Part shown: positions 15,602 to 55,881 of the stretch, piece after piece
Layout: every line of letters starts with the position of its first letter
Position numbering within the stretch: position 1 is the stretch's first letter
Origin: Planctomycetota bacterium
GTDB taxonomy: Bacteria; Planctomycetota; SZUA-567; H5-PLA8
Reading direction: 5' to 3'
Length of the DNA stretch: 64,000 nt
Assembly (NCBI GenBank): GCA_026184295.1
Contig: JAHCJK010000003.1
Location: forward strand, 14,226 to 78,225
Translations under genes and position numbers: made by a program
Notes under the pieces: generated by a model
Database searches by the model: none
Told to the model about the DNA's origin: nothing
Seen by the model: the letters and a program-made list of their open reading frames with translations, nothing else

Positions 15602-15716
15602 GCCTTCACTATCCCCCATTTCGCGCCGGTTCGCAACGGGTCAGACTTCCTGGACGCCGCGCGCGCCCGAAGGTACACCTGCTTACGCATGAATCATCGG
15701 GAGCGCGCGAACCGGC

Positions 15717-38305: not shown

Positions 38306-38390
38306 CTGTCACAAAATGTAATTTACTTGGCCATAGGTGTTTCGAATTATGTGTGACACGGGGATTGACAATGTGTGACAGTATGTTACA
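38306..38390. promoter_or_regulatory. candidate DeoR operator array: direct repeats ATGTGTGACA (38349-38358, 38371-38380) plus related TGTCACA / TGTTACA copies
   Basis: The motif family is repeated in the divergent intergenic region between the GH2 gene and the DeoR regulator gene. Confidence 0.5.
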
Positions 38391-38420
38391 GTTCGAACGA
38401 TCACGAATCCGAGGTCCGGC

Positions 38421-39218
38421 ATGCTCCTTCAAGAACGTCACCGCTGGCTGATCGAGACCGTGCGCAAGCAGGGTTCGCTCTCCGTTTCGGAAGCGGCCCG
38501 GGCGCTGAAAGTCACGCGCATGACGGTCTACCGCGACCTGAGCGACCTCGACGCGCAGGGCGCGCTGCGCAAGGTCTACGGCGGTGCCGTGGCGCTGCAC
38601 CGCCCGACCGACGGCAACGGTTTCTGGGCGCAGTCCTTCGAGGAACGCCGGCCGAAGGAGCCGGACCGCAAGACGGCGATCTCGCGGCATCTGGCGCGGC
38701 TGCTGGAAGGTTCGCACACGCTGGCGATGGACGCGAGTTCCACGGTCTTCGCGCTCGCGCACGAACTCCCCGGATTCAACGACTCGCGCAGCCTTTTCGT
38801 GGTCACCGGCGGCGTGCCGCTCTTTCACGAACTGATGAACCGCGGCGGGCGCGTGCGCATCGCGCTGCACGGCGGCGAACCTCATCCGCGCACGGGCTCG
38901 CTGGTCGGCCCGCTGGCGCTGGCGTCTTTAAAGGTGATGCGCTTCGACTGGGCGGTCGTCTCGGCCGTGGGCATGATGGAAGACGAAGGCGTCGTGTACG
39001 ACTCCACGCCCGAGGAAGCCGAGATCAAGCGGGCCTACATGGCGCAGGCGCGCCGCAAGGTTCTCGCCATCGACACCACCAAGCTCAACCGGTCCGCGCC
39101 GTACCGGCTCGCGGATCTTTCCGAATTCGATGCATGGGTGAACGAAGAGGGAATCCACTGGACCAGCCGGAAAGCCACGCGCGCGCGCAGCGCCCGCGGC
39201 GCCGCCCGGACGGCCTAA
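38421..39218 (+). CDS. DeoR-family transcriptional regulator (rhamnose operon regulator-like)
   Basis: An N-terminal HTH (LSVSEAARALKVTRMTVYRDL) is followed by a DeoR-C sugar-phosphate-binding domain. It is the first gene of the rhaI/rhaD operon. Confidence 0.9.
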   Translation: MLLQERHRWLIETVRKQGSLSVSEAARALKVTRMTVYRDLSDLDAQGALRKVYGGAVALHRPTDGNGFWAQSFEERRPKEPDRKTAISRHLARLLEGSHTLAMDASSTVFALAHELPGFNDSRSLFVVTGGVPLFHELMNRGGRVRIALHGGEPHPRTGSLVGPLALASLKVMRFDWAVVSAVGMMEDEGVVYDSTPEEAEIKRAYMAQARRKVLAIDTTKLNRSAPYRLADLSEFDAWVNEEGIHWTSRKATRARSARGAARTA

Positions 39219-39239
39219 CGCGACGAGGGGAGCGAGCAC

Positions 39240-40472
39240 ATGGATACGTGGCGAGAAGAATGGAAGCTGCTTGAACGCAAACTGCAGAACCGCGGGCTCG
39301 ACGTGGGCGCGATCCGCAAGCGCATCGCGGGGTTCCGCTGCGAGACGCCGTCGTGGGGCTACGGCCCGAGCGGGACGCGCTTCGGCGTCTTCCCGCAGTC
39401 CGGCGAGGCCCGCACGATCTGGGAAAAGCTCGAGGACGCCGCCGAGTGCCACCGCCTGACCAAGATCTGCCCGACGGTCGCCGTGCACATCCCGTGGGAC
39501 AAGGCGAGCGACTGGGGCAAGGTGCAGGCCTTCGCCGAGGAACGCGGCGTGAAGATCGGCGCCGTGAACCCGAACGTCTTCCAGGACCATGAATACAAGT
39601 ACGGTTCCTTCGGCCACTGCGACCCGAACGTGCGGGCCAAGGCGCGCGCGCACATGCAGGAATGCTGCGAGATTATGAAGGTGACCGGCAGCGACCTTCT
39701 TTCGCTCTGGTTCGCCGACGGCACCGATTACCCGGGCCAGGCCGACTTCCGGCAGCGCAAGCACTGGTTCGAAGAGGAACTGAAGGCCACCTACGCGATG
39801 CTGCCCAAGAACGGGCGCATGCTCGTCGAATACAAGTTCTTCGAGCCCGCCTTCTACCACACCGACATCGCCGACTGGGGCATGGCGCTCAGCTTCGCGC
39901 AGAAGTGCGGCGAGCGCGCGCAGGTGCTGGTGGACCTGGGCCACCACGCGCACGGCGTGAACATCGAACACATCGTTTCCTTCCTGATCGACGAAGGGCG
40001 CCTGGGCGGCTTCCACTTCAACAACCGCAAGTACGCCGACGACGACTTGACCTGCGGCTCGACGAACCCGCTGGAACTCTTCCTCATCTTCACCGAACTC
40101 GTCGCGGCCGAGGGCGAAGCGGCGACGCTGAAGCACCCGATCGCGTACATGATCGACCAGAGCCACAACACCAAGCCGAAGCTCGAAGCGATGATCCAGA
40201 CGGTCGAGTTCATCCAGACGGCGCAGGCCAAGGCGCTGCTGGTCAACCGCAAGAAGCTGAAGGAATGCCAGGCCAACAACGACGTGGTCGGCGCCGAACG
40301 CTGCCTGACCGAAGCGTACAACACCGATGTCGAGCCGCTGCTGATGAGCGTGCGCGAGGAACTGGGCGCGGCGCTGCAGCCGCTCGAGATTTACCGCCTG
40401 AGCGGCTACGCGAAGAAGACCGCCGAACAGCGCAAAGGCAAAGTCGCCGGCGCGGGCCTGGGCGTGAACTGA
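39240..40472 (+). CDS. rhaI: L-rhamnose isomerase (Pseudomonas stutzeri / Rhizobium type, xylose-isomerase-like TIM barrel)
   Basis: The 410-aa product carries the motifs WGYGPSGTRF, HIPWDKA, LVDLGHHA, GGFHFNNRKYADDDL and MIDQSHN, which are characteristic of this L-RhI family. Confidence 0.88.
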   Translation: MDTWREEWKLLERKLQNRGLDVGAIRKRIAGFRCETPSWGYGPSGTRFGVFPQSGEARTIWEKLEDAAECHRLTKICPTVAVHIPWDKASDWGKVQAFAEERGVKIGAVNPNVFQDHEYKYGSFGHCDPNVRAKARAHMQECCEIMKVTGSDLLSLWFADGTDYPGQADFRQRKHWFEEELKATYAMLPKNGRMLVEYKFFEPAFYHTDIADWGMALSFAQKCGERAQVLVDLGHHAHGVNIEHIVSFLIDEGRLGGFHFNNRKYADDDLTCGSTNPLELFLIFTELVAAEGEAATLKHPIAYMIDQSHNTKPKLEAMIQTVEFIQTAQAKALLVNRKKLKECQANNDVVGAERCLTEAYNTDVEPLLMSVREELGAALQPLEIYRLSGYAKKTAEQRKGKVAGAGLGVN

Positions 40473-40499
40473 GTCATCGGTCAGTGGAGGTCTGCCTAA

Positions 40500-40937
40500 A
40501 TGGGCGTGCTAACCGACCTCATCGTCGCAGATCCAGCCCAAGCGAAGGAGATTTGCCAGACGCATGGCAAGAAACCCTTTCCTTCGGTGGACATTAAGGG
40601 GTTCGACCAGATCAAAGGCGCGACTCTCTGGAGCATCCTGGAAGGCTCTGACGTTTCGGATGTCGATTACGTGGTCGGGCTATCCGAGAAGTTCACGTTG
40701 TTGTGCGAGGAAAGCGATGACGGGCCTTGGGTGTACCAGGTGCCGGACGAGTTCCTGAAACTGATTGCATCCACCGAAGATGAGGCTGTTGGAGAAATGG
40801 TAGAGGCGTGGTCGCAAACCGAGGAGTTCGACGGCTACAGCCTGGAGGATGTGCAGTTCTACTTCGACACATTGTTCGAAGCTGCTACACGCTCGGACCT
40901 GGGGAGCAAGAAGCTCCTGATGTGGATTTGTCTGTAA
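40500..40937 (+). CDS. acidic hypothetical protein (145 aa), compositionally atypical gene inside the rha operon
   Basis: An ATG-initiated clean ORF. Its GC and codon usage (cta, att, aca, ttg) are visibly lower and different from the flanking rhaI and rhaD. No similarity to rhamnose mutarotase. Confidence 0.5.
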   Translation: MGVLTDLIVADPAQAKEICQTHGKKPFPSVDIKGFDQIKGATLWSILEGSDVSDVDYVVGLSEKFTLLCEESDDGPWVYQVPDEFLKLIASTEDEAVGEMVEAWSQTEEFDGYSLEDVQFYFDTLFEAATRSDLGSKKLLMWICL

Positions 40938-40959
40938 CCCTACAACGAGGAACGCAACG

Positions 40960-43083
40960 ATGAGCACAGCAGAAAAGACCTTCAAGCACGTGAGCTACCT
41001 GTGGGAGGACGCCAAGGTTCCCGCCGATCCGGTCGGCCAGCTGCTGATCCGGTCGAACTGGCTGGGCGCGGACCTGCGCATCACCAACTTCGCGGGCGGC
41101 AACACGAGCGTGAAGTGCATGGAAAAGGACCCGCTGACCGGCGAACAGACCGAGGTCATGTGGATCAAAGGCTCCGGCGGCGACCTGGGCACGATGAAGA
41201 AGTCGGGCCTAGCCTGCATCGAGATGAAGAAGTTCTTCGCGCTAAAGAAGATTTACCGCGGGCTGAAGCACGAAGACGAGATGGTCGGCTACCTGCCGCA
41301 CTGCACGTTCAACCTGGTGAGCACCGCGGCCTCGATCGACACGCCACTGCACGCCTTCATCCCGCGCCCGCACGTCGACCACCTGCACCCCGACAGCATC
41401 ATCGCCATCGCGGCCAGCAAGGACGGCGAGAAGCTGACCAAGGAAATCTTCGGCGGCAGCGTCGCCTGGATTCCGTGGCAGCGCCCCGGCTTCGACCTGG
41501 GCCTTAAGATTGGCGAATGCTACGCCAAGCACCCCGGCATCAAGGGCATCATCCTCGGCGGGCACGGGCTCTTTTCGTGGGGCGACACCGCGCGCGCCTG
41601 CTACGAGAGCACGCTGGAACTGATCGAAGCGGCCGCGGAATTCCTCGCCGCGAAGGAGAAGGCCAAGCCGGCCTTCGGCGGCAAGGTGCGCGAATCGCTG
41701 AGCCCCGAAGAACGCCGCGCGCAGGCCGCCAAGGCCATGCCGGTGCTGCGCGGGCTGACGTCCTCGGTCAAGCGGACCATCGGGCACTTCCGCGACGACG
41801 CGGCGGTCCTGCAGTTCCTCGAATCGAAGGATCTGCAACGCCTGGCGGCGACGGGCACGAGCTGCCCCGACCACTTCCTGCGGACCAAGCGCACGCCGCT
41901 GGTGATGGACCTGGACCCCAAGGCCGACCCGCTGGCCGAACGCGCCCGGCTGGCCGCGCAGTTCGACCAGTACCGCGCCGACTACGCCGGCTACTACGAA
42001 CGCTGCAAGCACCCCGACTCCCCCGCCCTGCGCCCGCCCGATCCCGCGATCGTGCTCTGGCCGGGCGTCGGGATGTTCTCGTTCGCGAAGGACAAGCCCA
42101 CCGCGCGCGTGGCGGCGGAATTCTACGTCAACGCGATCAACGTGATGCGCGGGGCCGAGACGGTCTCGTCGTACGTCGCGATCAGTGAGCAGGAAGCCTT
42201 CGACATCGAATACTGGGCGCTCGAGGAAGCCAAGCTCAAGCGCATGCCGCCCGAAGCGCCGCTCTCGCGGCGCGTCGCGCTGGTCACCGGCGCGGGCAGC
42301 GGCATCGGCAAGGCCATCGCCGAACGGCTGGCGAAGGAAGGCGCGTGCGTCGTCGTCGCGGACATGAACGAGGAAGCCGCGAAGTCTTCGGCGCAGAGCA
42401 TCATGCAAACCTGCCCCGAACGCGCCGCGGCGGTGCGTTCGAACGTCACCGACCCGAAGGACGTGGCCGCGGCCTTCGATGCGGCTTGCCTGGCCTTCGG
42501 CGGCGTGGACCTGCTCGTCAACAACGCAGGCCTTTCGATCTCGAAGTCGCTCGTCGAGACCACCGAGAAGGACTGGGACCTGCAGTTCGACGTGATGCCG
42601 AAGGGCAGCTTCCTGCTCAGCCAGGCCGCGGCGCGCTGCTTCGATGCCCAGGGCATCTCGCAGGAAGGCAGCCTGAAGAACCTCGGCGGCGACGTGGTGT
42701 ACATCGTGAGCAAGAACGCGCTGGTCGCGCAGCCGAACAACATCGCGTACGGTTCGGCCAAGGCGGCGCAGTTGCACCAGATGCGGCTGCTCGCGGCGGA
42801 ACTGGGCCCCAAGGGCGTGCGCGTCAACGCCGTGAACCCCGACGCGGTCGTGCGCGGCTCGGGCATCTTCGCCAGCGGCTGGGGCGCCGACCGGGCCAAG
42901 ACCTACGGGATCAGCGAGGACAAGCTGCCGGCCTTCTACGCCAGCCGCACGCTGCTGAACCAGGAGATCCTGCCCGACGACATCGCGCTGGCCGTCTTCG
43001 CGCTCGTCGGCGGGCAGCTTTCCAAGAGCACCGGCATGACGATTCCGGTGGACGGGGGCCTGGCGCCCGCGTTCCAGCGTTAA
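40960..43083 (+). CDS. rhaD: bifunctional rhamnulose-1-phosphate aldolase / short-chain dehydrogenase
   Basis: A class-II aldolase/adducin N-terminal domain is fused to a C-terminal SDR (TGAGSGIGKA Rossmann motif, YGSAK catalytic motif). The ~707-aa architecture matches Rhizobium-type RhaD. Confidence 0.9.
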   Translation: MSTAEKTFKHVSYLWEDAKVPADPVGQLLIRSNWLGADLRITNFAGGNTSVKCMEKDPLTGEQTEVMWIKGSGGDLGTMKKSGLACIEMKKFFALKKIYRGLKHEDEMVGYLPHCTFNLVSTAASIDTPLHAFIPRPHVDHLHPDSIIAIAASKDGEKLTKEIFGGSVAWIPWQRPGFDLGLKIGECYAKHPGIKGIILGGHGLFSWGDTARACYESTLELIEAAAEFLAAKEKAKPAFGGKVRESLSPEERRAQAAKAMPVLRGLTSSVKRTIGHFRDDAAVLQFLESKDLQRLAATGTSCPDHFLRTKRTPLVMDLDPKADPLAERARLAAQFDQYRADYAGYYERCKHPDSPALRPPDPAIVLWPGVGMFSFAKDKPTARVAAEFYVNAINVMRGAETVSSYVAISEQEAFDIEYWALEEAKLKRMPPEAPLSRRVALVTGAGSGIGKAIAERLAKEGACVVVADMNEEAAKSSAQSIMQTCPERAAAVRSNVTDPKDVAAAFDAACLAFGGVDLLVNNAGLSISKSLVETTEKDWDLQFDVMPKGSFLLSQAAARCFDAQGISQEGSLKNLGGDVVYIVSKNALVAQPNNIAYGSAKAAQLHQMRLLAAELGPKGVRVNAVNPDAVVRGSGIFASGWGADRAKTYGISEDKLPAFYASRTLLNQEILPDDIALAVFALVGGQLSKSTGMTIPVDGGLAPAFQR

Positions 43084-43209
43084 TCCTGAAAAGCGCTGGG
43101 TAACGCCCCGCGCCGGGCTATCATAGGTTCGATTCCACATCGGATGCGCGCGCCCGCGCCGGTTCCGTCCGCAACCGGCCGGGGCGCATCCCGGAATTGA
43201 GAACCGCTC

Positions 43210-45330
43210 ATGTCCGAACCGGCGCCTCCGCACGCGCAATCTCCCGAACTTCACGGCCACCGCCGCATGCTCTCGGACCTCCCGGTGCAGACCATCGGGA
43301 TGACGACGCTGCCGTCGGAAAACCCGACCTGGCGCGGCTGGGTCCTGGGATTCTTCTGCGTCGCGGCCATCTGCCTGGTGATCCCGTATTTCGATTTCGT
43401 CCTGCGCGGCACGATGTTCTCGAACAGCATGTTTCCCGCCAGTTCGGTCTTCATCCTCTTCGCGCTTTGCGTGGGCGTGACGGCGCTCCTTTCGGCCTAC
43501 CGGACCGCCCTGGGGCTGACCAGCCAGGACCTGGTGCTGGTCTTCGGCATGACGATGGTGGTGAACGCGATTCCAGGCTGCGGCTTCTGGGTCTTCTGGG
43601 TCACGCAGACGACGGGCGGGTACTTTTTCAAGTCGCCTGAAAACAACTACGACAAGCTGGTGCTCCCGCACATCCCCGAATCCTGGGCCCCGCACGACAA
43701 CGAGACCATCCGGCCCATCGAATGGTTCTACACCGGGCTGCCGCCGGGCAAGGAGATTCCCTGGGGCGCGTGGGTCGGCCCGTACATCATCTGGTGCCTG
43801 GCCCTGCTGATGATTTTCGGAATGATCTTCGCGCTCTGCGGCCTGTTGCGCCGGCAATGGTCCGATCACGAGCAGCTCACCTTTCCGCTCGCGCAGCTTC
43901 CCCAGGATATGGTCTCCGGCCTGTACGGCGGGCCCACGGCGCCGTTTCTCAAGGACCGCCTGGCCCTGTGGGGCATCGGGCTCACCTTTCTCTTCCATTC
44001 GTGGAACAACTTCGGCGACTACTTTTCGCAGGTGCCGCGGATTCCGCAGGGCGCGGACCTGCATCAGTACCTGCTGGAACCGCCCTTAAACGCGCTGCTG
44101 CCGGTCTGGGCGAAGATTTATCCGTCGGTCATCGGCCTGACCTACCTGCTCTCGCTCGAGATCTCCTTCAGCCTCTGGTTCTATTTTCTGGCGCTGAAGG
44201 CGATCGCGTTCAGTTCGACGCAATCCGGCCTGCTGCCGATGGGCAAGTACTGGAGCGGCCCGTTCGTCGATCAGGGCACGGGCGCGCTGATCGGCATGGC
44301 GGTCGGCGCGCTGTACATGGCGCGCTACGAACTCGGGGGCTCCTTTCTGGAAGCGATCGGCAAGCGCGCGCAGCGTCAGGAAACCTCGGACCCGAGCCCG
44401 CGCCTGCTCTGGACGATGCTGGTGGCCTGCTTCGCCGGCTCGGTCGCCTGGATGATGTGGATGGGCGTCGAACCGGTGTACGCGCTGAGCATGCTTCTGT
44501 TCCTGCTGCTGGTGATGGTGGGGATGACGCGACTTTCGTGCGAAGGCGGGCTCTTTTTCATGCAGATGACGGTCTTCCCGCTGAACTTCGTCAACCTGTT
44601 CGGCACGCCGGTTAACATGGGCGCGACGCAGTACGTGCGCCTGGCCATCTGGGACCGCGTGATGGTCGCGGACTGGTACCGCGTGCTCTTCATGCCCAAC
44701 GTCATGAACGGCCTGCACCTGGCCAGCCGCACCAGCCTGCGCCGCCGGCCGCTCATGGCCGCGATGGCCTGTGCGGTGGTCGTGGCGCTCGTGGTCAGCT
44801 TCTTTTCCATGCTCACCACCGCGTACAAGGCCCCGGGCGGCGCGACGCAGATGGCCTGGTATTTCAAGGATCATCCGATCAGCGAATACAAGAGCATGGC
44901 CGCGACGACCTCGCAGATCGCCAGCTACGAAACGAAGCTCGCGAAGGCCGAAGCCGAGCAGCGCGAGGTGCCCTATTCCGACCTGCCCGATGCCGCCCGG
45001 CGCGACTGGTGGCGCGTCTTCTGGATCGGCCTGGGCATGGGGTTCATGTTCCTGAGCCTGATGCTGCGCCGGTTTTTCTTCTGGTTCCCGCATCCGATCG
45101 GCTACGTGATGTGGATGGGTCCCTACCCCGACCTGTGCCTGTGGTTCTCGTTCTTCATCGGCTGGGCGATCAAGCTTACGCTGCTGAAATTCGGCGGGAG
45201 CCGCATGTACATGCGGACGAAACGCTTCTTCATCGGAATCGTGATCGGGGAGGCCTGCGCGATCGTGGTCTGGAAGCTGGTGGCGCTCTTCGCCAACAAC
45301 ATCAACGGCATCAACATCCTGCCGGGCTGA
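43210..45330 (+). CDS. large polytopic membrane protein of uncharacterised family, paralog B (706 aa); candidate rhamnose transporter
   Basis: It is the last gene of the rha operon and has about 14 or more TM helices. It shares the motifs PFPLAQ, IYPSVIG, LSLEISFSLWF, WFPHPIGYVMWMG and LKFGG with paralog A at 11054-13198. Confidence 0.8.
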   Translation: MSEPAPPHAQSPELHGHRRMLSDLPVQTIGMTTLPSENPTWRGWVLGFFCVAAICLVIPYFDFVLRGTMFSNSMFPASSVFILFALCVGVTALLSAYRTALGLTSQDLVLVFGMTMVVNAIPGCGFWVFWVTQTTGGYFFKSPENNYDKLVLPHIPESWAPHDNETIRPIEWFYTGLPPGKEIPWGAWVGPYIIWCLALLMIFGMIFALCGLLRRQWSDHEQLTFPLAQLPQDMVSGLYGGPTAPFLKDRLALWGIGLTFLFHSWNNFGDYFSQVPRIPQGADLHQYLLEPPLNALLPVWAKIYPSVIGLTYLLSLEISFSLWFYFLALKAIAFSSTQSGLLPMGKYWSGPFVDQGTGALIGMAVGALYMARYELGGSFLEAIGKRAQRQETSDPSPRLLWTMLVACFAGSVAWMMWMGVEPVYALSMLLFLLLVMVGMTRLSCEGGLFFMQMTVFPLNFVNLFGTPVNMGATQYVRLAIWDRVMVADWYRVLFMPNVMNGLHLASRTSLRRRPLMAAMACAVVVALVVSFFSMLTTAYKAPGGATQMAWYFKDHPISEYKSMAATTSQIASYETKLAKAEAEQREVPYSDLPDAARRDWWRVFWIGLGMGFMFLSLMLRRFFFWFPHPIGYVMWMGPYPDLCLWFSFFIGWAIKLTLLKFGGSRMYMRTKRFFIGIVIGEACAIVVWKLVALFANNINGINILPG

Positions 45331-45358: not shown

Positions 45359-46696
45359 TTACTTGGATTCGAGCAGCAGCGGCGCGCCGGTGGCCTGGCG
45401 CTGGCGCTGCGATTCGGCCTGCGCGCGGTCCATCGCCACGGTGCCGACGGCGGAGAGTTCGCCCGCGCCGTACAGGAACTGAATCTCGACGCGGTTCAGG
45501 ACCGGGAAGAGATCGAAGACAGTGTACGGCAGGTCCTTCACGTCCTCGTTGATCTGGCGGTCCTTCGGTTCTTCCAGCAGGATCACGTTCAGCTTCACCG
45601 TGGCGCCCTGCACCTTCACCGCGTTGATGCGGCGCTGCGCGGCGCCGGGCTTGTCGGGGTAGAAGGTCATCAGGCGCGAGATCACGTCGCGCTCCTGCGG
45701 GCTCAGGTCGCCGTAGTTCGCCTTGAACCATTCGTCGATGAGCGCGCGGGCCTGGGTGACGGTCTGCTGCGCCTCGGGCGACTTGAACGCGCCGGAGCGT
45801 TCGCGCGCGCGGCTGTCGATGGCGGTCAGCCGGTTCTGCGCGTCGGCCAGGCGGTCCTTCTTGAGCAGTTCCTGGATCGCGGCGGCGTCCTCGCCCAGGC
45901 CGGCGTTCTCCTGCTTCGATTCCTGGTGGCTCTTCAGTTCGCGGATCGCGACCATGCTGCATACGGCCACGACGATGCCCGCGGCCGCCAGCACCAGGCG
46001 GTTGCGTCCCGAGAGCGTGAAACCCAGCGCGCCTACGAAGATCGCGGCCTGCGCGAAGAGAAAGAGAATGAAGAGGAACGAGGCGAGCGAGACGAGCGCG
46101 GCGATGCCCAGCACGGCCACGCTGCCGGCGAAGATCAGTTTCTTGTTGCGCCCGGCGGCCTTGTCCTGCTGTTCCCGCCGCAGGCAGTCGCCGCAGGTCA
46201 GGACGCTGTTGACGAGCGTCGCGGCGCCCTGCGCCACGCGGTCGGCACTGACCATCTTGCCGCAGCGGTGGCAGGTCCAGTGCTGCGAAGTGTGAAGGGA
46301 CGTCCGCTCCGGCATCACGTTCTTGCCGTCGGGCGTCAGCGCGGGCAGGCGGATGGACTTGGTGGTCTTGGCGCGGGCGCGCTGCGCGTGCGCGGCGGCC
46401 GATTCGGCCAGCACCGCGCCCGCGGCGGGCAGCGGGATGCGCCCGCTGATGGGGCGCTTGGGCGCGCCGGGCGCGGGCGCCTGCCCCGCCGGGTTCTGCA
46501 TCGGCAACCGGATGGAGGACGTGGTCTGCTTGCGGTGCGTGCCGGAACCTGTGGGCAGAATGCGTCCGCTGATCGGGCGCGGCGCGCCGGCGGGACGCGG
46601 ATCGCCCGGCTTCGAGACGCGGGGCGAGGACCCGGGTTCGGGACTCGAAGGCCCCGCGGGGGTATTCTGGGTGGGTTCCGTCATTGCTTTAAACAT
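45359..46696 (-). CDS. membrane-anchored hypothetical protein with N-terminal repeats and a zinc-ribbon-like motif
   Basis: It has RPISGRI / T(S/K)SIRLP repeats, CHRCGK…CGDC, one TM helix and a C-terminal coiled-coil-like domain. It lies immediately downstream of the pseudopilin genes on the same strand. Confidence 0.55.
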   Translation of the reverse strand: MFKAMTEPTQNTPAGPSSPEPGSSPRVSKPGDPRPAGAPRPISGRILPTGSGTHRKQTTSSIRLPMQNPAGQAPAPGAPKRPISGRIPLPAAGAVLAESAAAHAQRARAKTTKSIRLPALTPDGKNVMPERTSLHTSQHWTCHRCGKMVSADRVAQGAATLVNSVLTCGDCLRREQQDKAAGRNKKLIFAGSVAVLGIAALVSLASFLFILFLFAQAAIFVGALGFTLSGRNRLVLAAAGIVVAVCSMVAIRELKSHQESKQENAGLGEDAAAIQELLKKDRLADAQNRLTAIDSRARERSGAFKSPEAQQTVTQARALIDEWFKANYGDLSPQERDVISRLMTFYPDKPGAAQRRINAVKVQGATVKLNVILLEEPKDRQINEDVKDLPYTVFDLFPVLNRVEIQFLYGAGELSAVGTVAMDRAQAESQRQRQATGAPLLLESK

Positions 46697-46715
46697 ACTA
46701 CCCTTTCAGCGTGCG

Positions 46716-49466
46716 TCACATCCCCTGATTCAGGGTCGATACCCTCCTGATGACCACGCGCTTGCTCGTCTGCCTGCCCTTGTCGCTGGTGCTGCTTACG
46801 TTCACCCGTGCGCGGTAGAAGTCGCGGGTGTCGGCGTCGTACTGGGCCGAGTCGAGGTTTTCGGCCGAGACCCCGCGGTAATCGACCCAGCGCTGGGGAA
46901 TCACGAGGTTCAGGATGTGGTCGTTGAGCAGTTCCGAGGTGCCGACGGAACCGTTTTCGTTGACGGGGGGCAGCGGGTAGGTCATCGACGGGTTCATGGT
47001 CAGCAGCGTGGTTTCCGGCAGGCTGGGCAGTTGGCGATCCACGCCCACCTGGCTGGCCGTCTTCATCCCGTTGTCCTGGCAGTAGAAATCGGACCTGTTC
47101 ACGTTGGACTTGGTCCGGCGCGGCCACTGCCCGCGGTAGTACCCCAGCCCCGTCGCGGGCCAGTCGTTGCCGGTGGATCCCGTGTCGGTCTCGACGAGCT
47201 GGTCCGGGGCGATCTCGACGACCACCACGGCCTGATACCAGGTGCGCACGTCCGGATCGGTGGGGTTCAGCGCGGCCGAGGCGGCGTCCACGACTTCGGT
47301 GGTGACCACGAGCCAGTAGGTCGTGGAGGTCGTCGTCAGTTCGGTGGAAAAGCTGTCGGGGCCGAAGCAGAGCTGGCGCCAGGGAACCTGGTTGCGCGGC
47401 GCACAACTGGTCCGTTCGAAGGTGTTCGCCGGGGCGTTCTGGACGATGTCCAGGCCCTTCTCGTTGAAGGCCGCGTACGCGCCCGTGGCGACGAAGGTAT
47501 TCCGGCGGTTGTACTTCAGGTCCACGTACTCGTCGCGGCCGACGCGCATGTTGTACAGTTCGGTGATGGGGTCGCGGACGCCCGCGCGCGGATCGCTTTC
47601 GAACAGCAGGAAGTGCGTGGCGCCGCCGGCATCCCGCCAGTTCTTGCCCGGGATTATGTTGTCGAAGATTGCGTTGGCCGTGCGCTTGTCGAGCTTGCCG
47701 GGGATGATCTCGGGCGTATCTCGAACGTCAAAACTGACTGTCAATTCTCCATCCGGTACGATGGTCTCGCCATTGGGCCCGGTGTAGGCGGCCTGCCCCG
47801 CCACGTCGTACACCATTTCGTCGCCCGAAGTATAGATGTACCCGGGATTGACGACGGTGTTGTCGGTCCAAGCGTTGTTCCTTTCGGTCATGACCACCAG
47901 ATCTTCGGCAATCTTGCGGCGGAATTCTTCAAGCCCGTAAGGAAAGCGCGTGCGCCCGTAGTAGTCGGTCATCGCGTAATTGTTCGCGGTGTCCTGGGAA
48001 CTGTCCCCATAGGGGGCGGTTCCGGTGGGGCGGAATGCATACTTTACCCTTTGAGCTTCCGCAAGCTGCAGCGCACCCTTTCGATTCCCCGTCTGAGTGC
48101 TGGTGAACGCAAACTGTTGATAGTAGGAGCGCTCCGTCTGTTGGCCATTGCGCCGAAACAGTTCCCAATCACCCCATGACGATTTTTGCGTATTGTGATT
48201 GTAGCAATCCGGACGGTATCGAGCGCAGAAGTAGCGGACCATGGTTTCTTGATACCAATACGCGAGCTTGACTTGCAGTTCCTCGATATGGGTAATCGCA
48301 TTGTCGATCTGCGCGGCGGTGAGGGGGTTGTTGGAGGCGTCGCGCCACGTTGTCGTGTCGGCCTGTGCGTCCAGAACGATCTTTGGAGTCGTGCCGGAAC
48401 TGTCATGATCGATCCAAAACTTGCCGACCTTGATGATGCGGGCGAGCGATTCGACGTTAAAGACCCCTTCAAGCACGAACGACCAGCTATTTTCCGACCC
48501 GGCGACCACCATCGGCATCACGTTGCCTGACATCTCGCAGGTGTTGACGTTGACGGGGCAGCGCCCGGTGTCGGGATCCGCGCCCGCCTGAACGGTGTGC
48601 CCACCGAGGCCGACCTGATAGTACCAGTTGCCGCCCGTGTCGGGCGCTTCGTCCACGAAGATATTCTTCCAGCCGTTGAATTCGGGGCCCCACAGCCCTT
48701 CCCAGGAGGTGTTGGTGGTGATCCAGTTCGGCGAGACCATCTTATAGTCGCCGCCGAAGGACCAGTTGTACTTCAGGTAGCGGACCGTGCGCGTGGCCAT
48801 GCGCCAGCCTTCCGCGTAGCGATAGGGGCCGAAGTTGCCGTTGTAAGCCTGTCCCGCCCGCGAGGCGCGTTGGGGTTCAAAGTGGTTGATGCCGGTGCCG
48901 TCCATGAGCATGTGCGCCATCTGGCATTGCGTGGGGTTGCAGTCTTCGTTCCAATCGTTGATGGCCAGGGCGGAATTGGCGTCCACCACCTGCACGCAAA
49001 AGCGCCCGCGCGTGCTCCCGTCGGGAAAGAAGTCCGCGGGCATGTACTTCCATTTCGCATCCTTCATGCGCATGTACTTGTCGATGTACCGGTTGGGCGA
49101 CGTTCCGTCGGTGTAGCCGCTGGGCAGCGTCTTCACGAAGGGATCGTAGGGCGTGTACCACCACTGTCCGCCGCCGTTGGCGGAGTCGTCGTTGGCGTGG
49201 CTGACCCACTTGGTCGGATCGAACCGCTGCGTGGTCGGGTCGATCACGTGGTTGGCGATGTTGGCGATGGCCCAGTCCATCGAGGACTGCGCCAGGTCCA
49301 TGGCGTCGGTCTTGTCGCGCAGGTGGCTGACCGAAGCGACCTGCGTGCGCGTCAGGCTCATGAAGCCCACGACCACCGCGAGCAGCACGGCCAGCAGCCC
49401 GACCACGACGATGAGGATGAACCCCCGTCGCGTCAGCCGTTCCCTGTTCCAGAGCGATGCCGCCAT
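46716..49466 (-). CDS. giant GspK-like minor pseudopilin / pilus tip-associated protein (917 aa)
   Basis: The start is taken at ATG MAASLWNRERLTRRGFILIVVVGLLAVLLAVVVGF, a hydrophobic N-terminal segment of the GspK/PilX type. It is the last pseudopilin gene in the cluster. Confidence 0.6.
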   Translation of the reverse strand: MAASLWNRERLTRRGFILIVVVGLLAVLLAVVVGFMSLTRTQVASVSHLRDKTDAMDLAQSSMDWAIANIANHVIDPTTQRFDPTKWVSHANDDSANGGGQWWYTPYDPFVKTLPSGYTDGTSPNRYIDKYMRMKDAKWKYMPADFFPDGSTRGRFCVQVVDANSALAINDWNEDCNPTQCQMAHMLMDGTGINHFEPQRASRAGQAYNGNFGPYRYAEGWRMATRTVRYLKYNWSFGGDYKMVSPNWITTNTSWEGLWGPEFNGWKNIFVDEAPDTGGNWYYQVGLGGHTVQAGADPDTGRCPVNVNTCEMSGNVMPMVVAGSENSWSFVLEGVFNVESLARIIKVGKFWIDHDSSGTTPKIVLDAQADTTTWRDASNNPLTAAQIDNAITHIEELQVKLAYWYQETMVRYFCARYRPDCYNHNTQKSSWGDWELFRRNGQQTERSYYQQFAFTSTQTGNRKGALQLAEAQRVKYAFRPTGTAPYGDSSQDTANNYAMTDYYGRTRFPYGLEEFRRKIAEDLVVMTERNNAWTDNTVVNPGYIYTSGDEMVYDVAGQAAYTGPNGETIVPDGELTVSFDVRDTPEIIPGKLDKRTANAIFDNIIPGKNWRDAGGATHFLLFESDPRAGVRDPITELYNMRVGRDEYVDLKYNRRNTFVATGAYAAFNEKGLDIVQNAPANTFERTSCAPRNQVPWRQLCFGPDSFSTELTTTSTTYWLVVTTEVVDAASAALNPTDPDVRTWYQAVVVVEIAPDQLVETDTGSTGNDWPATGLGYYRGQWPRRTKSNVNRSDFYCQDNGMKTASQVGVDRQLPSLPETTLLTMNPSMTYPLPPVNENGSVGTSELLNDHILNLVIPQRWVDYRGVSAENLDSAQYDADTRDFYRARVNVSSTSDKGRQTSKRVVIRRVSTLNQGM

Positions 49467-49483
49467 GTCTGCTCCCTTGCCGG

Positions 49484-50545
49484 CTACAGGCCCGCTTCGA
49501 GCACGCCCAGGTTCTTGGCGCGGTTGAACGGATTCGGCTGGTTCACGTCCGTGTCCAGCGCCGCGCCCACGTTTTCCACGCTTCCCGCGCCCATGCCCGT
49601 CGGCACCTGCACCAGCCGGCAGAGCGTGATGCGCTTGCGCTTGCCGCGGTCGCAGACCGTGATGGTGATGCGCACGGTCTTGGGCGCGGGCGCGAAGTAC
49701 ACCACCGAATTGGCCGTGGTCCATTCCGACTCGAGTTCGCGGAACTTGCGCGTGGTCTGGTCCCACCAGGCCACGTCGAAGTCGATCAGGTTGATCCCGC
49801 TGACGTGCATGCGCGTGTAGTCGCTGATCCAGTTGTTCCAGATGACCTGGTTTTTGATCTCGTTGCCGGGCGTGAGCCGGTTGGCGTTCTCGTTCGGCCA
49901 GACGATCAGGCCGCCCGAGGGCGGCGACGGATAGTAGGGTTCGTTGGCGCGCGCGTAGTACTGCAGGGACGTCTCGATCAGGGAGACGTCGTTCAGCATC
50001 GTGGCGCGGTTGGGCGGCGCAACGCCATACTCGGTGTCGGGAAGCGGATAGAGGAGCGTCGAACGCATCGAGCCGAACCAGGCCTCGTGCGTGTTGGGCT
50101 TGTACAGGAACTGCGTCGGGTAGTTGAAGGGGTGCGTCATCGAGCCGTTCACCAGCGTGCCGCGGCTTCCCGCGCTGCCGATGGATCCCGCGAAGGAGCC
50201 CGGCTGCGGCTTGATGAGCTGCACGCCGTCGGCCTCGCGGCGCGAGAAATAATAGAGCTTGGTGTTCCCCGCCGGCGCCACGGGCGTGAACGGATCGGTG
50301 TCGTCCCACGAGCTGCTCTTGATGGAGAAGTGCTCGCCGCGTTCGTTGCCCAGCGACTGCCGGATCTCCTGCTCGAAGATATCCAGGATGTTGCGGGCGG
50401 CTTCGTAGGCGGCCAGTTTCTCCTCGACATTGCGGACCGTGCGCGTGGAGACCTGGAAGATGGGCACGACAAGCAGCATGATCGCCAGCGCGATGCTGAC
50501 CACCACCATCATCTCCAGGATCGTAAACCCGCGGCATCTCGCCAT
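49484..50545 (-). CDS. prepilin-type N-terminal cleavage/methylation domain pseudopilin (354 aa)
   Basis: The N-terminus MARCRGFTILEMMVVVSIALAIMLL carries the classic GFTxxE prepilin motif. Confidence 0.65.
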   Translation of the reverse strand: MARCRGFTILEMMVVVSIALAIMLLVVPIFQVSTRTVRNVEEKLAAYEAARNILDIFEQEIRQSLGNERGEHFSIKSSSWDDTDPFTPVAPAGNTKLYYFSRREADGVQLIKPQPGSFAGSIGSAGSRGTLVNGSMTHPFNYPTQFLYKPNTHEAWFGSMRSTLLYPLPDTEYGVAPPNRATMLNDVSLIETSLQYYARANEPYYPSPPSGGLIVWPNENANRLTPGNEIKNQVIWNNWISDYTRMHVSGINLIDFDVAWWDQTTRKFRELESEWTTANSVVYFAPAPKTVRITITVCDRGKRKRITLCRLVQVPTGMGAGSVENVGAALDTDVNQPNPFNRAKNLGVLEAGL

Positions 50546-50568
50546 CGTCCGGCTCCCGTCGCTTCGGA

Positions 50569-51138
50569 TCAGTTCCCGTACGAATACATGTACTGCGTGT
50601 AGCGCTGTTCCTTCTTCGTGCCCTTCAGGTTGATCACGATGGTCACGCGCGTCAGGCCCACGTCGGCGCCCGCGTTCACCACCGGCACGTACGGCGACGT
50701 GTTGGGCGCCGCGGGCGTCGCGTTGCTGTCCAGCCCGACGCTCCTGAGTTCGCCCTGGTCCACCAGCCACTGGTAGCGTTCGATGTCGTCGAAGTATTCG
50801 TAGGTTTCGCCCGCGCCGTGCGCGAAGTCGCGCCAGCCGCCGGCGTTCCCGTTCTTCTGTTCCTGCCCGCGCGGCGGCGCAAGGGCCGCGTCCATGTAAC
50901 CGGACCCGTCGAGCAGGTCCACGCGCGGGTCGATGCGGTCGCGGCGGAACTCCGCGAACTTGGAGCGCGACAGGTGCACGGAAGCGTCGAGGAAGACGAC
51001 CTTCTGCGCCGAATCGATGCCCGTCGGCATCGCCGCCAGGATGCCCATCACGCCGATCAGGAGCACGAACAGCGCGATCAGGATTTCGATCAGCGTCAGG
51101 CCGCGTCGGGCCGCGGGCGTATTTCGCAACAGGTTCAC
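50569..51138 (-). CDS. prepilin-type pseudopilin (about 190 aa, GTG start)
   Basis: The N-terminus …RRGLTLIEILIALFVLLIGVMGIL is prepilin-type. The start is inferred at the GTG (VNLLRNTPAA). Confidence 0.55.
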   Translation of the reverse strand: MNLLRNTPAARRGLTLIEILIALFVLLIGVMGILAAMPTGIDSAQKVVFLDASVHLSRSKFAEFRRDRIDPRVDLLDGSGYMDAALAPPRGQEQKNGNAGGWRDFAHGAGETYEYFDDIERYQWLVDQGELRSVGLDSNATPAAPNTSPYVPVVNAGADVGLTRVTIVINLKGTKKEQRYTQYMYSYGN

Positions 51139-51152
51139 GCGCGTCCCTTCGT

Positions 51153-51977
51153 TCAAAGATTGCCCGGGTACGAATCGATGCGATTGTTGATCTGCCGCCA
51201 GTCGCTCACCGAGTCGGCGGCCACCGGGCCGCTCGACGGGTTCGCCCGGATGTGCGTCAGCGTGTACGGCAGCACGCGCGGGCGCGTCGCCGAATGGCTG
51301 CGCCCCGCCTCCATGACCACGTGCTGCCCGGTCGCTTCCTCGTAAATAAGGAGAAAGTCGTACGCGTAGCAGCCGATGCCCGTGACCTGCTGCACCAGCC
51401 CGCCGCGCTGCGAAAAGACCGTGTGGTGGCGCTTGATCTCCCCGATCGGGTCCTTGCGGTACTTGGGGAAATCGAAGACGCAGCGGTACACGCCGCTCGC
51501 AAGCGAGCGCGAGAAGATGCCGGCCATGATGCGCACGCCGTCGGGATACGTGATCGCCTGCTTGGTGATCATCATCGTCGGGAAGCGGAACGGATACCAC
51601 TGGTCCGAGCCGCTGACCGCGGGCGAGATGACCGGCCGCACGTCGCCGTAGCCGCCGAACCCGAAGCCCGTCGTCGCCTGCACCGCCCAGACTTCGATCT
51701 CGCCCTTCTTCGGCACGGGGTTGGGCGAAGGCTCCAGCCCCATCGTCGCCAGGTCGTCGCCGTAATAGACCGCCACCACCGAGCGCAGGTTCTGCGCTTC
51801 GGAACGCGCATGGAAGAGCGCCGTCTCGACGGCCGAGACCGTCTGCTGAAGTTTGGACTGCTTGGCCAGTTGCGAGAACAGGGGGTACGCCATCCCCGTC
51901 AGGAGGGCGATGATGAAGATCACAAGGATCAGTTCGACGAGCGTGAACGCCCGCTTCTGCCTGCGCGGCATCTTCAT
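51153..51977 (-). CDS. prepilin-type pseudopilin (274 aa)
   Basis: The N-terminus MKMPRRQKRAFTLVELILVIFIIALL is prepilin-type. Confidence 0.65.
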   Translation of the reverse strand: MKMPRRQKRAFTLVELILVIFIIALLTGMAYPLFSQLAKQSKLQQTVSAVETALFHARSEAQNLRSVVAVYYGDDLATMGLEPSPNPVPKKGEIEVWAVQATTGFGFGGYGDVRPVISPAVSGSDQWYPFRFPTMMITKQAITYPDGVRIMAGIFSRSLASGVYRCVFDFPKYRKDPIGEIKRHHTVFSQRGGLVQQVTGIGCYAYDFLLIYEEATGQHVVMEAGRSHSATRPRVLPYTLTHIRANPSSGPVAADSVSDWRQINNRIDSYPGNL

Positions 51978-51992
51978 GGCTGCTCCCGTGCC

Positions 51993-52562
51993 CTACTTGC
52001 CCGAAACGACGTCGTCCCCGGTGCCGCCGTTATCGGTCTGATCGGGTCCAAACGAATAAATCTGAATGGTCTTTTTGGTGCGCGTCTTGGTGTTGTCCCA
52101 GACGTCGGTCTCGACCTGCGTCGTCACCTTGTACATCACCGGCTTGAACCACGGATCGACGATCACCGGACGCCCCGAGCCCAAGTCCCTCACTTCCTGC
52201 TCGCTGAACCTCCCGAAGGGCCCGCAGTTGAGCGTCGCCGCCACTTCGCCCGCGCCCGACGGCGTCTTGCGGTACGTGCGGGTCAGGAAATACGCGAGGG
52301 CTTCCGGACCGTTGTACGCCCCAAAGGCATCCGGCGGATATTCGCGGAAGTCCAGGTGGTAGCTCTCCAGGGCGTTCTGGCAGGTCTCGATCAGGGACTT
52401 GGCCGTGCTGGCCTTGGCGCGCGAACGCATGCGCGAAGTCATCCCGAAGATCGCAGCCATCAGCAAGGAAATGATGCCGATGACCACGAGCAGTTCGAGC
52501 ATGGTCATGCCACGCGCGCGCTTCGATCTCTGCGGTTGGCTGCAAGCGTCCCGTGCGAGCAC
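51993..52562 (-). CDS. GspG-like major pseudopilin (type II secretion / type IV pilin-like)
   Basis: A leader (…KRARG) is followed by MTMLELLVVIGIISLL. The downstream motif DPWFKPVMY resembles the GspG 'DPWGNPY' signature. Confidence 0.7.
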   Translation of the reverse strand: MLARDACSQPQRSKRARGMTMLELLVVIGIISLLMAAIFGMTSRMRSRAKASTAKSLIETCQNALESYHLDFREYPPDAFGAYNGPEALAYFLTRTYRKTPSGAGEVAATLNCGPFGRFSEQEVRDLGSGRPVIVDPWFKPVMYKVTTQVETDVWDNTKTRTKKTIQIYSFGPDQTDNGGTGDDVVSGK

Positions 52563-53061: not shown

Positions 53062-55881
53062 CTATTTCTTGCGCGTGGTCAGCTGGAGCGGCAGGCGCGC
53101 GAGGCCCCCGGCGGGCTTGACCTTCAGGCGCACGGCCTTCGGCGCGGCGACGTCCAGGATCAGCACGCCTCGTTCGATGCGCCAATCGACGTCGATCGTC
53201 CCGCGGCGATGCGGCACCGAACCTCGCGCCCAGGTCAGCGACGCGGAATCCGGCGCGACAAGCACTTCGTCGGGCTTGGCGCGCGTCTGCCGGACGCCCA
53301 GCGTCCGTTCGGCCATCGTGTGCATCGGCGCGCAGCTCCAGGCGTGGCAGCGGCTGCCGTTGTGCCCGATGCCTTCCCAGATCGTCCACGCGCCCTGCGA
53401 GCGCACGAACCCGTAGTTGCTGCGAATCGCCTGTTCGGCCAGGCCGGTGCGCCCGTGGTCGTAGAGCACGTTCAAGAGGAAGTAGAAGAAGTAGAGTTCC
53501 GCGTAGCCGCCCTGCCGCTTGAGGTTCTCGGGCAGGCGTTCTTCGATGTAGCGCAAGACCGCCGGCTTGCGCGCGTCGCTTACCAGGCCGAAGAAGAGCG
53601 CCAGGATGTTCGAATGCAGCGCGCCGTCGGTCACGCGTGCGCCGTTCATGCGGGTCGCCGCGTAGCGCTTCTGTCCGTCGTCCCACAGGCTCTGAAAGAT
53701 CTTGGCCGCGCGCGCGTGTTCCTTGCGGTATCGGGCGGCCTCGGCGGGCTTCTTCAAGGCTGCGGCCAGCTGCGCGGCGGCCTCGTACGCGCCGCAGCGG
53801 ATGGCGTTCAGCGGACCGCTCTCGCCCTTCTTCGTCTCCTTCGCCGCGCCCCAGTCGCAGAAGACGTGCAGATTGTCCGCGTTCCACAGGCCGCCCGGCG
53901 CTTCCACCCAATCGGGGCTCGCGAAGATCGCCGCGACGCTCGGCCAGACTTCCTTCGCGAGACTCAGGTCGCCGGTGGCGGCCCAGTAATCGCGCAGGAT
54001 GACGATCCAGAGGAGCGTGTAATCGTGCAGCGGGTTGTACTTCCACGCGGGCACGACGTCCTGCATCTGCCCGCCGTCCATCTGCGCCTTGGCCCACAGC
54101 CAGAGGCAGCGGCGCACCATCGCCGGATCGGCGCTGACGGCGCGGTTGGCCTGGTATTCGACCAACGAATCGCCCACGTAGGCGCCGCGTTCGCGCCAGG
54201 GGCAATCGAGGTACGCGTCTTCCATGCAGGCCTGGAGCGTCTCGGTGCCGGCCTCGAAGACCCAGTTGTAAAGCGGGTCGGAACATTCGAAGCGCCCTTC
54301 GCGCTGCAGCGGATACGTCGTCTGCCGAACGGTCAGGCGGTGCAGGATCACCGGCCCCTTTGCGTCGCGCACCGCAACGGAGAGATAACGCCCGCCGCGC
54401 GGGTGAAAGCCCTCGACGGTCTCGCGCCCGCCGCGCAGCACGAAGCGGTCGGCCGACCCGATCCACCAGTTGGTCTTGAAGACGTCGATCATCCCGTCGG
54501 CGCGCAGGCGTTCGTCGTTGCAGACATCCACCACCGTGCCGGCCGGCGCCTCGATGTCCAGCCGCGCATGCCCGAGAAACTCGCCGCCGAAATCGAAGAC
54601 CACCACGCCGCCGTTGGCCTCGGTGCCGGGGATCGCGATCTCCGTGACCTGGTACGGATCGGCGTCCACCTTCTGCCCCGGCGTGTCCCAGGCCATCTCG
54701 CGGCCGGGCGCGGGCACGCGCGCGCCGTGCGGCACGGGCGTCCAGCCGCCCACCTCGGGCAGGCCCTTCAGGTCGGCGGGAACGCGCGTGCGTTCGCGCT
54801 CGAGCACATCCACGTCCACGGGGCCGCTGTGGATCATGCACGCGGCCGCGCCTTCGCGCGGTTCGGCGGACGCCACGATCCCCTTCCCCGCCGGGATGCC
54901 GATGAGGATGCTCCAGCATTCGGCGAGCATCTCCGGTTCGCCGTAGAGGAAGTTCCAGCCTTTGCGCAGGCGCACGGGATAGTCTTCGCGGTTGCCCAGG
55001 CGCTCGGTCTTGACCCGCTGGATCGGCTCGCCGTTCAGGTAATTCGGGCCCCACCAGATGCCGATCGTCACGTCCTGTTCTTCGGGCGAATACAAATGCG
55101 TCGCGTAGCAGACGCGCGGACGCTTGCTCCCACGCGGGCCCACCGAGGCGTCGATGCGGCAGCCGATGCGGTACTCGGTGGCGTCCAGCGCCGCGACGGT
55201 CAGCGTCCGCTCCGGCAGGCGTTCGTGCATCGTCAGCATTGGAATCGAACGCGGCGTGAACGGGCCCCAGAAACCCTGGTTCGCCAGCGGCGTGGGAGCG
55301 GGCCACGCGCCGTCGTCGAAGGAGGCCTCGAACCACGCGGCGGGAATCCCGCGCAGATCGGCGATCTCGACCGGGCCCTGCGCGAAGCTGAACGGCGGCG
55401 CCCACGGATCGACTGCGGTCAGCGGCATGGCCTTCCACGCGCCGGGTGTGGAAAGGTCCACGGCGTCCTTGCCCTGCCCGGCCGCGCCCCAGGCCAGAAA
55501 ACCCGCGAGCCCCGGGAGCGACTCGAACGAACTCGCGCCCTTGTGGTTCACTTCCACCGTGACCACGTTGCGCCCCTTGACGAGGTACGGGGCCAGGTCC
55601 ACGGAGTCGTACTGCGGCGCCTTGGGCGTAAAGCGCGCCGGGCCGTACGCGGCGATGTGTCCGTTCACCCGCAGGCGGTAGCGTGTGTCGGCAAAGAGAT
55701 GCAGCAGCGCGCGTGCGGGGATCTTGGCGAGCTTGAAGGTTCTTCGAAAGAATGCGAAGAGATTGCGCCCTTCGCCTTGTGCATCAGTCCAGACCATCAG
55801 CGGTTTCGACGACGTTGTTTTCACTCCATTTTCTCCCGGCCGAACAGGCCACCCGAGCCTTTGCACGGCGTTACACAGCAT
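53062..55881 (-). CDS. alpha-L-rhamnosidase (GH78)
   Basis: The bacterial rhamnosidase N-terminal beta-sandwich (LRVNG) is present. The six-hairpin catalytic domain contains DCPWRERGAYVGD, the GH78 'DCPxRE(R)xGWxGD' signature. The ATG is at 55881; an internal ATG (MVWTD) is an alternative. Confidence 0.85.
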   Translation of the reverse strand: MLCNAVQRLGWPVRPGENGVKTTSSKPLMVWTDAQGEGRNLFAFFRRTFKLAKIPARALLHLFADTRYRLRVNGHIAAYGPARFTPKAPQYDSVDLAPYLVKGRNVVTVEVNHKGASSFESLPGLAGFLAWGAAGQGKDAVDLSTPGAWKAMPLTAVDPWAPPFSFAQGPVEIADLRGIPAAWFEASFDDGAWPAPTPLANQGFWGPFTPRSIPMLTMHERLPERTLTVAALDATEYRIGCRIDASVGPRGSKRPRVCYATHLYSPEEQDVTIGIWWGPNYLNGEPIQRVKTERLGNREDYPVRLRKGWNFLYGEPEMLAECWSILIGIPAGKGIVASAEPREGAAACMIHSGPVDVDVLERERTRVPADLKGLPEVGGWTPVPHGARVPAPGREMAWDTPGQKVDADPYQVTEIAIPGTEANGGVVVFDFGGEFLGHARLDIEAPAGTVVDVCNDERLRADGMIDVFKTNWWIGSADRFVLRGGRETVEGFHPRGGRYLSVAVRDAKGPVILHRLTVRQTTYPLQREGRFECSDPLYNWVFEAGTETLQACMEDAYLDCPWRERGAYVGDSLVEYQANRAVSADPAMVRRCLWLWAKAQMDGGQMQDVVPAWKYNPLHDYTLLWIVILRDYWAATGDLSLAKEVWPSVAAIFASPDWVEAPGGLWNADNLHVFCDWGAAKETKKGESGPLNAIRCGAYEAAAQLAAALKKPAEAARYRKEHARAAKIFQSLWDDGQKRYAATRMNGARVTDGALHSNILALFFGLVSDARKPAVLRYIEERLPENLKRQGGYAELYFFYFLLNVLYDHGRTGLAEQAIRSNYGFVRSQGAWTIWEGIGHNGSRCHAWSCAPMHTMAERTLGVRQTRAKPDEVLVAPDSASLTWARGSVPHRRGTIDVDWRIERGVLILDVAAPKAVRLKVKPAGGLARLPLQLTTRKK

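Follow-up and report, generated by a model that had tools for sequence, protein, structure and literature searches.

How does L-rhamnose cross the cytoplasmic membrane of a planctomycete whose rhamnose genes come without a known rhamnose transporter? The question is raised by a 64,000-nt stretch of a Planctomycetota genome (assembly GCA_026184295.1, contig JAHCJK010000003.1, positions 14,226 to 78,225), hereafter the window, in which a rhamnose gene cluster ends in the gene for a 706-amino-acid (aa) membrane protein. From the listing of open reading frames (ORFs) and family scans, five genes lie co-directionally on the + strand: a 265-aa DeoR-family regulator (38421..39218; PF08220, E 7.7e-15, and PF00455, E 1.1e-33), the 410-aa L-rhamnose isomerase RhaI (39240..40472; TIGR02635, 559.6 bits against an equivalog cut-off of 531), an acidic 145-aa ORF (40500..40937), the 707-aa bifunctional L-rhamnulose-1-phosphate aldolase/short-chain dehydrogenase RhaD of the RhaEW type (40960..43083; TIGR02632, 982 bits against a cut-off of 568, with PF00596 and PF00106), and the membrane protein, a putative importer by its predicted fold (43210..45330). 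The intergenic gaps are 21, 27, 22 and 126 nt. Of the phosphorylative L-rhamnose pathway, the isomerase and the aldolase are thus encoded, both with scores above their equivalog cut-offs. An earlier note on this sequence had described the same five genes and had stated that known importers, rhamnulokinase and mutarotase were absent; a Pfam scan of roughly 38 window genes agrees, detecting no RhaT/DMT, no sugar transporter of the ABC kind, no MFS transporter, no sugar kinase, whether FGGY (rhamnulokinase RhaB/RhaK) or not, and no RhaM mutarotase.

The 706-aa protein, identical to KIS92_01435, matches two Pfam families and no others. DUF6785 (PF20581; E 3e-112, 376.1 bits against a cut-off of 25) covers residues 40-540 and is followed by DUF6784 (PF20580; E 1e-20, 74.0 bits against a cut-off of 26.4) at residues 604-696; both scores exceed the gathering thresholds, and all 55 aligned homologs contain both domains. 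The protein falls outside the DMT/RhaT, ABC permease or binding-protein, and MFS families. No paper was found in a literature search for DUF6785, DUF6784, PF20581 or PF20580.

Hydropathy indicates at least 11 strongly hydrophobic segments, and an AlphaFold2 model computed from 55 aligned sequences (predicted local distance difference test score, pLDDT, 90.9; predicted template-modelling score, pTM, 0.90) contains about 15-16 long helices by approximate count. Searched against the PDB with Foldseek, the model has a single real structural neighbour, barley Yellow Stripe 1 (HvYS1; E 9.4e-10, probability 1.00, template-modelling score 0.58-0.69), and it shares the fold of this solved member of the OPT family. 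Going by the model, the 706-aa protein very probably has an OPT/YS1-like fold, and the DUF6785/DUF6784 proteins appear in structural terms to be a very divergent branch of the OPT/Yellow-Stripe superfamily, a known fold and no new transporter class. Sequence comparison speaks against this placement: the OPT profile PF03169 matches neither the 706-aa protein nor any of the 55 homologs at E ≤ 1, and a profile search of PDB sequences returned no match and no OPT chain. A precomputed PF03169 entry exists for one homolog (P0059) and was not reproduced. Since the fold matches while the sequence relationship is invisible, we treat the protein as OPT-like in its presumed working and do not file it in the OPT sequence family.

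These results revise the earlier note in part. Its remark that the protein belongs to no recognised transporter family survives at the level of sequence, in that no known rhamnose transporter family is matched, and gives way to a curated DUF6785/DUF6784 match and a known transporter fold; the new importer class that it proposed becomes a divergent branch of the OPT fold. The Pfam search and structure prediction that it had suggested gave the two DUFs, together with a predicted fold matching that of a transporter.

HvYS1 (PDB 7wsr/7wst; Yellow Stripe-like branch, OPT family, Transporter Classification 2.A.67) is a homodimer and a proton-coupled importer with an elevator-type mechanism (PMC9691689). 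OPT members characterised so far all take up their solute by symport with a cation, and they have 16, rarely 17, transmembrane segments composed of internal repeats (PMC3061005). By its likeness to HvYS1 the 706-aa protein would, very probably, be a proton-driven importer too. The 706-aa protein differs from HvYS1, to which it is only 11-14% identical, in being bacterial and without a link to metal-chelate genes; the proton-site aspartates of HvYS1 itself are Asp446, Asp490 and Asp494. A parallel in proposed function is OPT subcluster 4C (Gomolplitinant & Saier 2011), a prokaryotic subcluster predicted from context for xylo-oligosaccharide uptake (PMC3061005); there, too, import of oligosaccharides and not peptides was proposed from genome context alone. 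Subcluster 4C is recognisable as OPT by sequence, whereas the DUF6785/DUF6784 proteins are not, and both carbohydrate roles are predictions.

The family is large and widely distributed. A profile search of 1.84 billion cluster representatives retrieved 8,319 relatives at E ≤ 1e-3 and 3,107 at E ≤ 1e-30, and genome and metagenome scans place DUF6785/DUF6784 proteins in Planctomycetota, Poribacteria, Latescibacterota, Armatimonadota, Gemmatimonadota, Omnitrophota and Acidobacteriota. Planctomycete metagenome-assembled genomes (MAGs) carry at least 5-6 copies each, with at least five KIS92_ proteins in the MAG of the window, and in one Planctomycetota MAG three such genes stand in tandem (L001, 7822-14399; also L002, L006 and L008), adjoined by genes for an AraC regulator and a xylose-isomerase-like TIM barrel. 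This expansion fits a nutrient-importer family of diversified specificities. The window itself holds a second paralog (11057-13198, - strand; 714 aa, 41% identical to the 706-aa protein), with a xylose-isomerase-like TIM-barrel gene (9526-10449) on one side of it and a DUF1570 gene (13303-15027) on the other.

What does the protein import here? We tentatively favour an OPT-fold secondary importer that in this locus serves, most likely, L-rhamnose or small rhamnose-containing oligosaccharides. Its gene is co-directional with rhaD and lies 126 nt downstream of it, the order of the two genes is kept in the closest relative (L166) despite divergence of the transporter to 71% identity, and the scanned window genes include no other inner-membrane sugar transporter. 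The surroundings of the cluster agree with such a role. The scanned genes there are mainly enzymes for rhamnose-containing polymers, their regulators and a pseudopilin-like cassette, with no peptidase among them: a divergent, secreted GH2-like protein (1,691 aa), an SGNH esterase, a secreted PcRGLX-like protein of the rhamnogalacturonan-lyase type, LacI regulators and a GH78 alpha-L-rhamnosidase (53062..55881, - strand; PF17389, PF05592 and PF17390). On inspection of the N-termini, the GH2-like and PcRGLX-like proteins have signal peptides and none is visible in the GH78 protein. Rhamnosides would therefore be cleaved inside the cell and have to be imported, and the GH78 enzyme is the likely intracellular source of free L-rhamnose.

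The route that we propose would begin with secreted enzymes that fragment a rhamnose-containing polymer. The 706-aa protein would act, by analogy with HvYS1, as a cytoplasmic-membrane, cation (proton)-coupled carrier of the elevator type with a large central cavity, importing L-rhamnose or, more probably, small rhamnose-containing oligosaccharides. Intracellular GH78 would free L-rhamnose from the imported rhamnosides, and RhaI, a kinase encoded elsewhere and RhaD would degrade the sugar under DeoR control. Family membership, predicted fold, gene order and local context are observed here; the direction of transport, its coupling to protons, the substrate and a regulation shared with the rha genes we infer.

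Transporters for L-rhamnose and rhamnosides have been assigned before by their position in or next to a DeoR-controlled rha cluster (PMC3870299), and the 706-aa protein resembles RhaT (DMT), RhaSTPQ/RhaFGHJ (ABC), RhaY (MFS sugar porter) and RhiT in this respect. All of these are unrelated to it in sequence and fold, and they were assigned through conserved co-localisation or experiments, whereas the co-localisation of DUF6785 with rha genes is confined to two close relatives.

That restriction is the first of several observations that weigh against rhamnose as the substrate. We compared five RhaD relatives with readable contigs (L166, L167, L168, L169 and L170/L171), and the rhaD-DUF6785 pairing is kept in one of the five, the closest. 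There (L166, RhaD 86% identical), rhaI, rhaD and the DUF6785 gene are followed by the same downstream cassette as in the window. The next relative (L167, RhaD 84%) has deoR, rhaI and rhaD and then, directly, a convergent GH78 gene (8791-9675, - strand) that corresponds to window positions 53071-53940; the DUF6785 gene and pseudopilin cassette, which fill about 10 kb between rhaD and GH78 in the window and in L166, are missing. The three farther relatives (L168, which matches a named Planctomycetes MAG, L169 and L170/L171; RhaD 71-74%) share the order deoR-rhaB(FGGY)-rhaI-rhaD-DUF4432 (in L168 at 6298-16235, lut genes included), with rhaB between deoR and rhaI and no transporter gene. Lactate-utilisation genes follow DUF4432, as a complete lutABC in L168 and as its start alone in L170/L171 before the contigs end. 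Wherever the upstream sequence is readable (L167, L168 and L169), deoR heads the operon. In the subclade of the window, rhaB, DUF4432 and the lut genes have disappeared from the rha cluster and, because the cluster lacks a kinase, the local pathway may be incomplete. Since L166 alone keeps the pairing of rhaD with DUF6785, and L167 and the three farther relatives do not, the pairing is recent and lineage-specific.

Nor does the wider family point to rhamnose. Searching the flanks (up to 10 kb) of 163 family loci with tblastn, we found a RhaD aldolase near DUF6785 in 0 of the 163 and a RhaI-like gene within 10 kb in one, from Omnitrophota (L072). Four ORFs separate that gene from the DUF6785 gene, and we judged the proximity coincidental, as the intervening ORFs look unrelated on inspection of their N-termini (they were not family-scanned). 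Co-localisation with rha catabolic genes is thus not conserved across lineages, and the earlier note's expectation that homologs might recur next to rhaI and rhaD failed both in these loci and in four of the five RhaD relatives. Its proposal of a deoxyhexose importer is plausible and agrees with the location in a region devoted to rhamnose-containing polymers, but among the relatives the pairing was found in L166 alone. Because this neighbourhood test mostly fails, deoxyhexose specificity is put forward as a working hypothesis, on weak and lineage-specific evidence.

The neighbourhoods do contain sugar-type settings. We called neighbour ORFs in all loci, clustered them and annotated the largest clusters, and three tight, co-directional pairings emerged. 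A sulfatase gene precedes DUF6785 in 13 loci (gaps mostly 19-46 nt), a GH32 gene follows it in 13 loci (gaps mostly 11-50 nt), and an enolase-superfamily (MR_MLE) dehydratase gene follows it in 10 loci from Poribacteria and Planctomycetota (gaps from 1 nt). Signal peptides were checked in one representative each of the first two: the sulfatase domain starts at residue 5 and the GH32 N-terminus runs into the catalytic motif, so that neither has one. The gene of a planctomycete homolog with 47% identity is oriented divergently from that of an RpiR regulator. The cluster to which both belong (L082, 175-8969; also L083) further encodes an RraA-like protein, a Kelch beta-propeller, a CE2/GDSL esterase and a DHDPS-family lyase that carries a fused BNR_2 sialidase-like domain, and it resembles a cluster for sialic-acid utilisation. 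Together with the AraC and TIM-barrel context of the tandem genes, the three pairings and the sialic-acid-like cluster argue for carbohydrate import followed by cytoplasmic processing. We considered whether the MR_MLE neighbours of the closest homologs might be L-rhamnonate or L-fuconate dehydratases and rejected this, their scores lying far below the equivalog cut-offs; for a poribacterial copy the best score is 244 bits, to L-rhamnonate dehydratase, against a cut-off of 393, and no assignment was made.

The reach of these sugar-type settings is limited, which counts further against the proposal. The GH32 and sulfatase pairings are almost wholly poribacterial, and identity among the transporters linked to GH32 is 62-97%; each pairing, being nearly all poribacterial and a single orthologous group, amounts to about one evolutionary event. 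With the largest neighbour clusters annotated, at least 46 of 135 loci have a clearly carbohydrate-type neighbour, and many other family contexts are unrelated to sugars. In the planctomycete-type clade, defined as DUF6785 genes at least 35% identical to the 706-aa query, the two nearest neighbours per side comprise 146 Pfam families among 124 proteins, with Ser/Thr kinases the commonest. For the closest non-syntenic homologs, at 55-59% identity, the neighbours are ambiguous or point away from sugars, being uninformative or suggestive of amino-acid derivatives: L081 has GGDEF/EAL and argininosuccinate synthase, L003 has PhyH, MR_MLE and a DoeB-like deacetylase.

Such heterogeneity counts in favour of another explanation, which we consider rather unlikely though a serious competitor: the protein would be an OPT-fold importer of a non-carbohydrate solute (an oligopeptide, amino-acid derivative or metal chelate), its gene driven by a promoter of its own and lying beside rhaD only through a recent insertion or rearrangement. 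The OPT substrates known are oligopeptides, glutathione and metal chelates, including the iron chelates, and most prokaryotic OPTs are predicted peptide transporters (PMC3061005), which tells against a sugar in our case as well. The gene is absent at this position in L167, and some family members neighbour creatininase-family amidohydrolases, Amidase_3, an M28 peptidase-FtsX fusion, the DoeB-like deacetylase or argininosuccinate synthase. The window, however, has no peptidase or peptide-catabolic gene near the 706-aa gene; the scanned genes around it are carbohydrate-active enzymes, sugar regulators and the pseudopilin-like cassette. The pairing with rhaD has also survived 29% divergence of the transporter in L166, and the tight pairs with a GH32 enzyme and a sulfatase, whose representatives lack signal peptides, are hard to square with a peptide substrate.

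The 126-nt intergenic region between rhaD and the 706-aa gene (43084..43209, + strand) bears on the same choice. Within it are a TATCAT element and a GC-rich hairpin that lacks a T-run. The region folds as RNA at -60.7 kcal/mol (z = -2.4), the L166 counterpart more weakly (z = -1.1), and alignment shows the TATCAT element conserved in L166. We rejected a terminator between the two genes, as no site has the required T-run; the hairpin is real but ambiguous. Given the strong hairpin and the conserved TATCAT, the 706-aa gene may have its own promoter, which favours a non-carbohydrate solute over our proposal, and co-transcription with rhaD is possible.

The transporter might instead serve the adjacent pseudopilin-like cassette and not the rha genes, as the inner-membrane step in trans-envelope uptake of polymer fragments, which we think improbable. 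The cassette (45359-52562, - strand) is convergent to the 706-aa gene and lies only 28 nt from its stop codon. Its products measure 445, 916, 353, 274 and 189 aa, the last two with an N_methyl motif; the N-terminal methylation motifs and a weak match to Verru_Chthon cassette A fit an envelope apparatus of this kind. The block formed by DUF6785 and the cassette is what the window has and L167 lacks, and the cassette is kept in L166 (5101-12466). In another planctomycete MAG (L020, 466-9609), a different DUF6785 paralog (39% identical) has homologs of four cassette proteins (445, 916, 353 and 274 aa) as its immediate neighbours. Yet just two independent co-locations turned up in about 44 planctomycete-type loci, and they differ from each other in the order and orientation of the genes. 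Such cassettes may also exist in several copies in these genomes, so that adjacency could be chance, and the role of each component is a predicted one. A 1,273-aa ORF within the cassette (46716-50537, - strand) is a high-GC artefact: comparison with L166 resolves two genes in its place, at about 46716-49466 (916 aa) and 49484-50545 (353 aa) on the - strand.

Rhamnose is also a cell-envelope sugar and sequence cannot give transport direction, so that an exporter or flippase for a rhamnose-containing glycoconjugate (a flippase was raised in the earlier note) or a non-transport membrane protein might be imagined, but this is very improbable, as the characterised OPT members are all uptake symporters (PMC3061005) and the scanned neighbours are catabolic, with no rml or glycosyltransferase genes among them.

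A broader picture may be sketched, one that we offer as speculation and think somewhat doubtful. DUF6785/DUF6784 would be a large, unrecognised sugar/oligosaccharide branch of the OPT superfamily and would provide Planctomycetota, Poribacteria, Latescibacterota, Armatimonadota and related phyla with a principal importer of carbohydrates at the cytoplasmic membrane, with paralogs specialised by glycan (rhamnosides here; fructans, sulfated sugars, acid sugars and sialic acids elsewhere) and, in some loci, possible cooperation with a pseudopilin-like envelope cassette. How sugars pass the inner membrane in these polysaccharide-degrading phyla is not evident from their operons, because the planctomycete-type rha operons examined carry no transporter gene. 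The family numbers over 8,000 sequence clusters and several paralogs in each genome; its confidently predicted OPT/YS1-like fold and its repeated pairing with intracellular glycan-processing enzymes make it a concrete candidate for that role. Were this true, the OPT substrate range would widen from peptides and metal chelates to carbohydrates, two Pfam DUFs would gain a function, and predictions of carbohydrate utilisation would improve for uncultured Planctomycetota and sponge-associated Poribacteria.

The remaining gene of the series, the 145-aa ORF between rhaI and rhaD, has no match in Pfam, NCBIfam or PHROG. Its GC content at third codon positions is 0.71, compared with about 0.9 in the neighbouring genes. 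The ORF is real, having four homologs at 32-63% identity; all four are in unrelated contexts, and the 50%-identical one lies beside a phage-type integrase (L164). The segment of about 490 nt that carries the ORF (40474-40963) is missing between rhaI and rhaD of both L166 and L167. The ORF is a lineage-specific insertion and no rhamnose gene. Its low third-position GC content, its absence from both syntenic relatives and the integrase beside a homolog suggest a mobile hitchhiker gene. The lack of a family match, together with the same absence and the same integrase, led us to reject a mutarotase (RhaM) or another pathway gene.

Upstream of deoR, a consensus scan located a promoter-like site, TTGACA-16-TACAGT (38365..38392, + strand; 10/12 matches, with a TG extension). 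Two exact direct repeats of ATGTGTGACA (38349-38358 and 38371-38380) lie 22 nt apart, the second inside this promoter-like site. The repeat occurs in the window only at the deoR promoter; two or more matches also arose in 44 of 100 shuffles, so the count is not above chance. Between the GH2-like gene and deoR there are two divergent promoter-like sites, and in each the -35-like box is overlapped by TGTGACA heptamers (38308-38380), two of which correspond to the ATGTGTGACA repeats. These may constitute a DeoR operator, a candidate whose repeat count does not exceed the chance level just given.

Upstream of the polysaccharide-degradation region, a TonB-dependent receptor gene (28866-30887, - strand) and a YfiR/HmsC-like (DUF4154) gene (28311-28844, - strand) lie beside a histidine kinase gene. 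The TonB-dependent receptor could provide the outer-membrane entry step.

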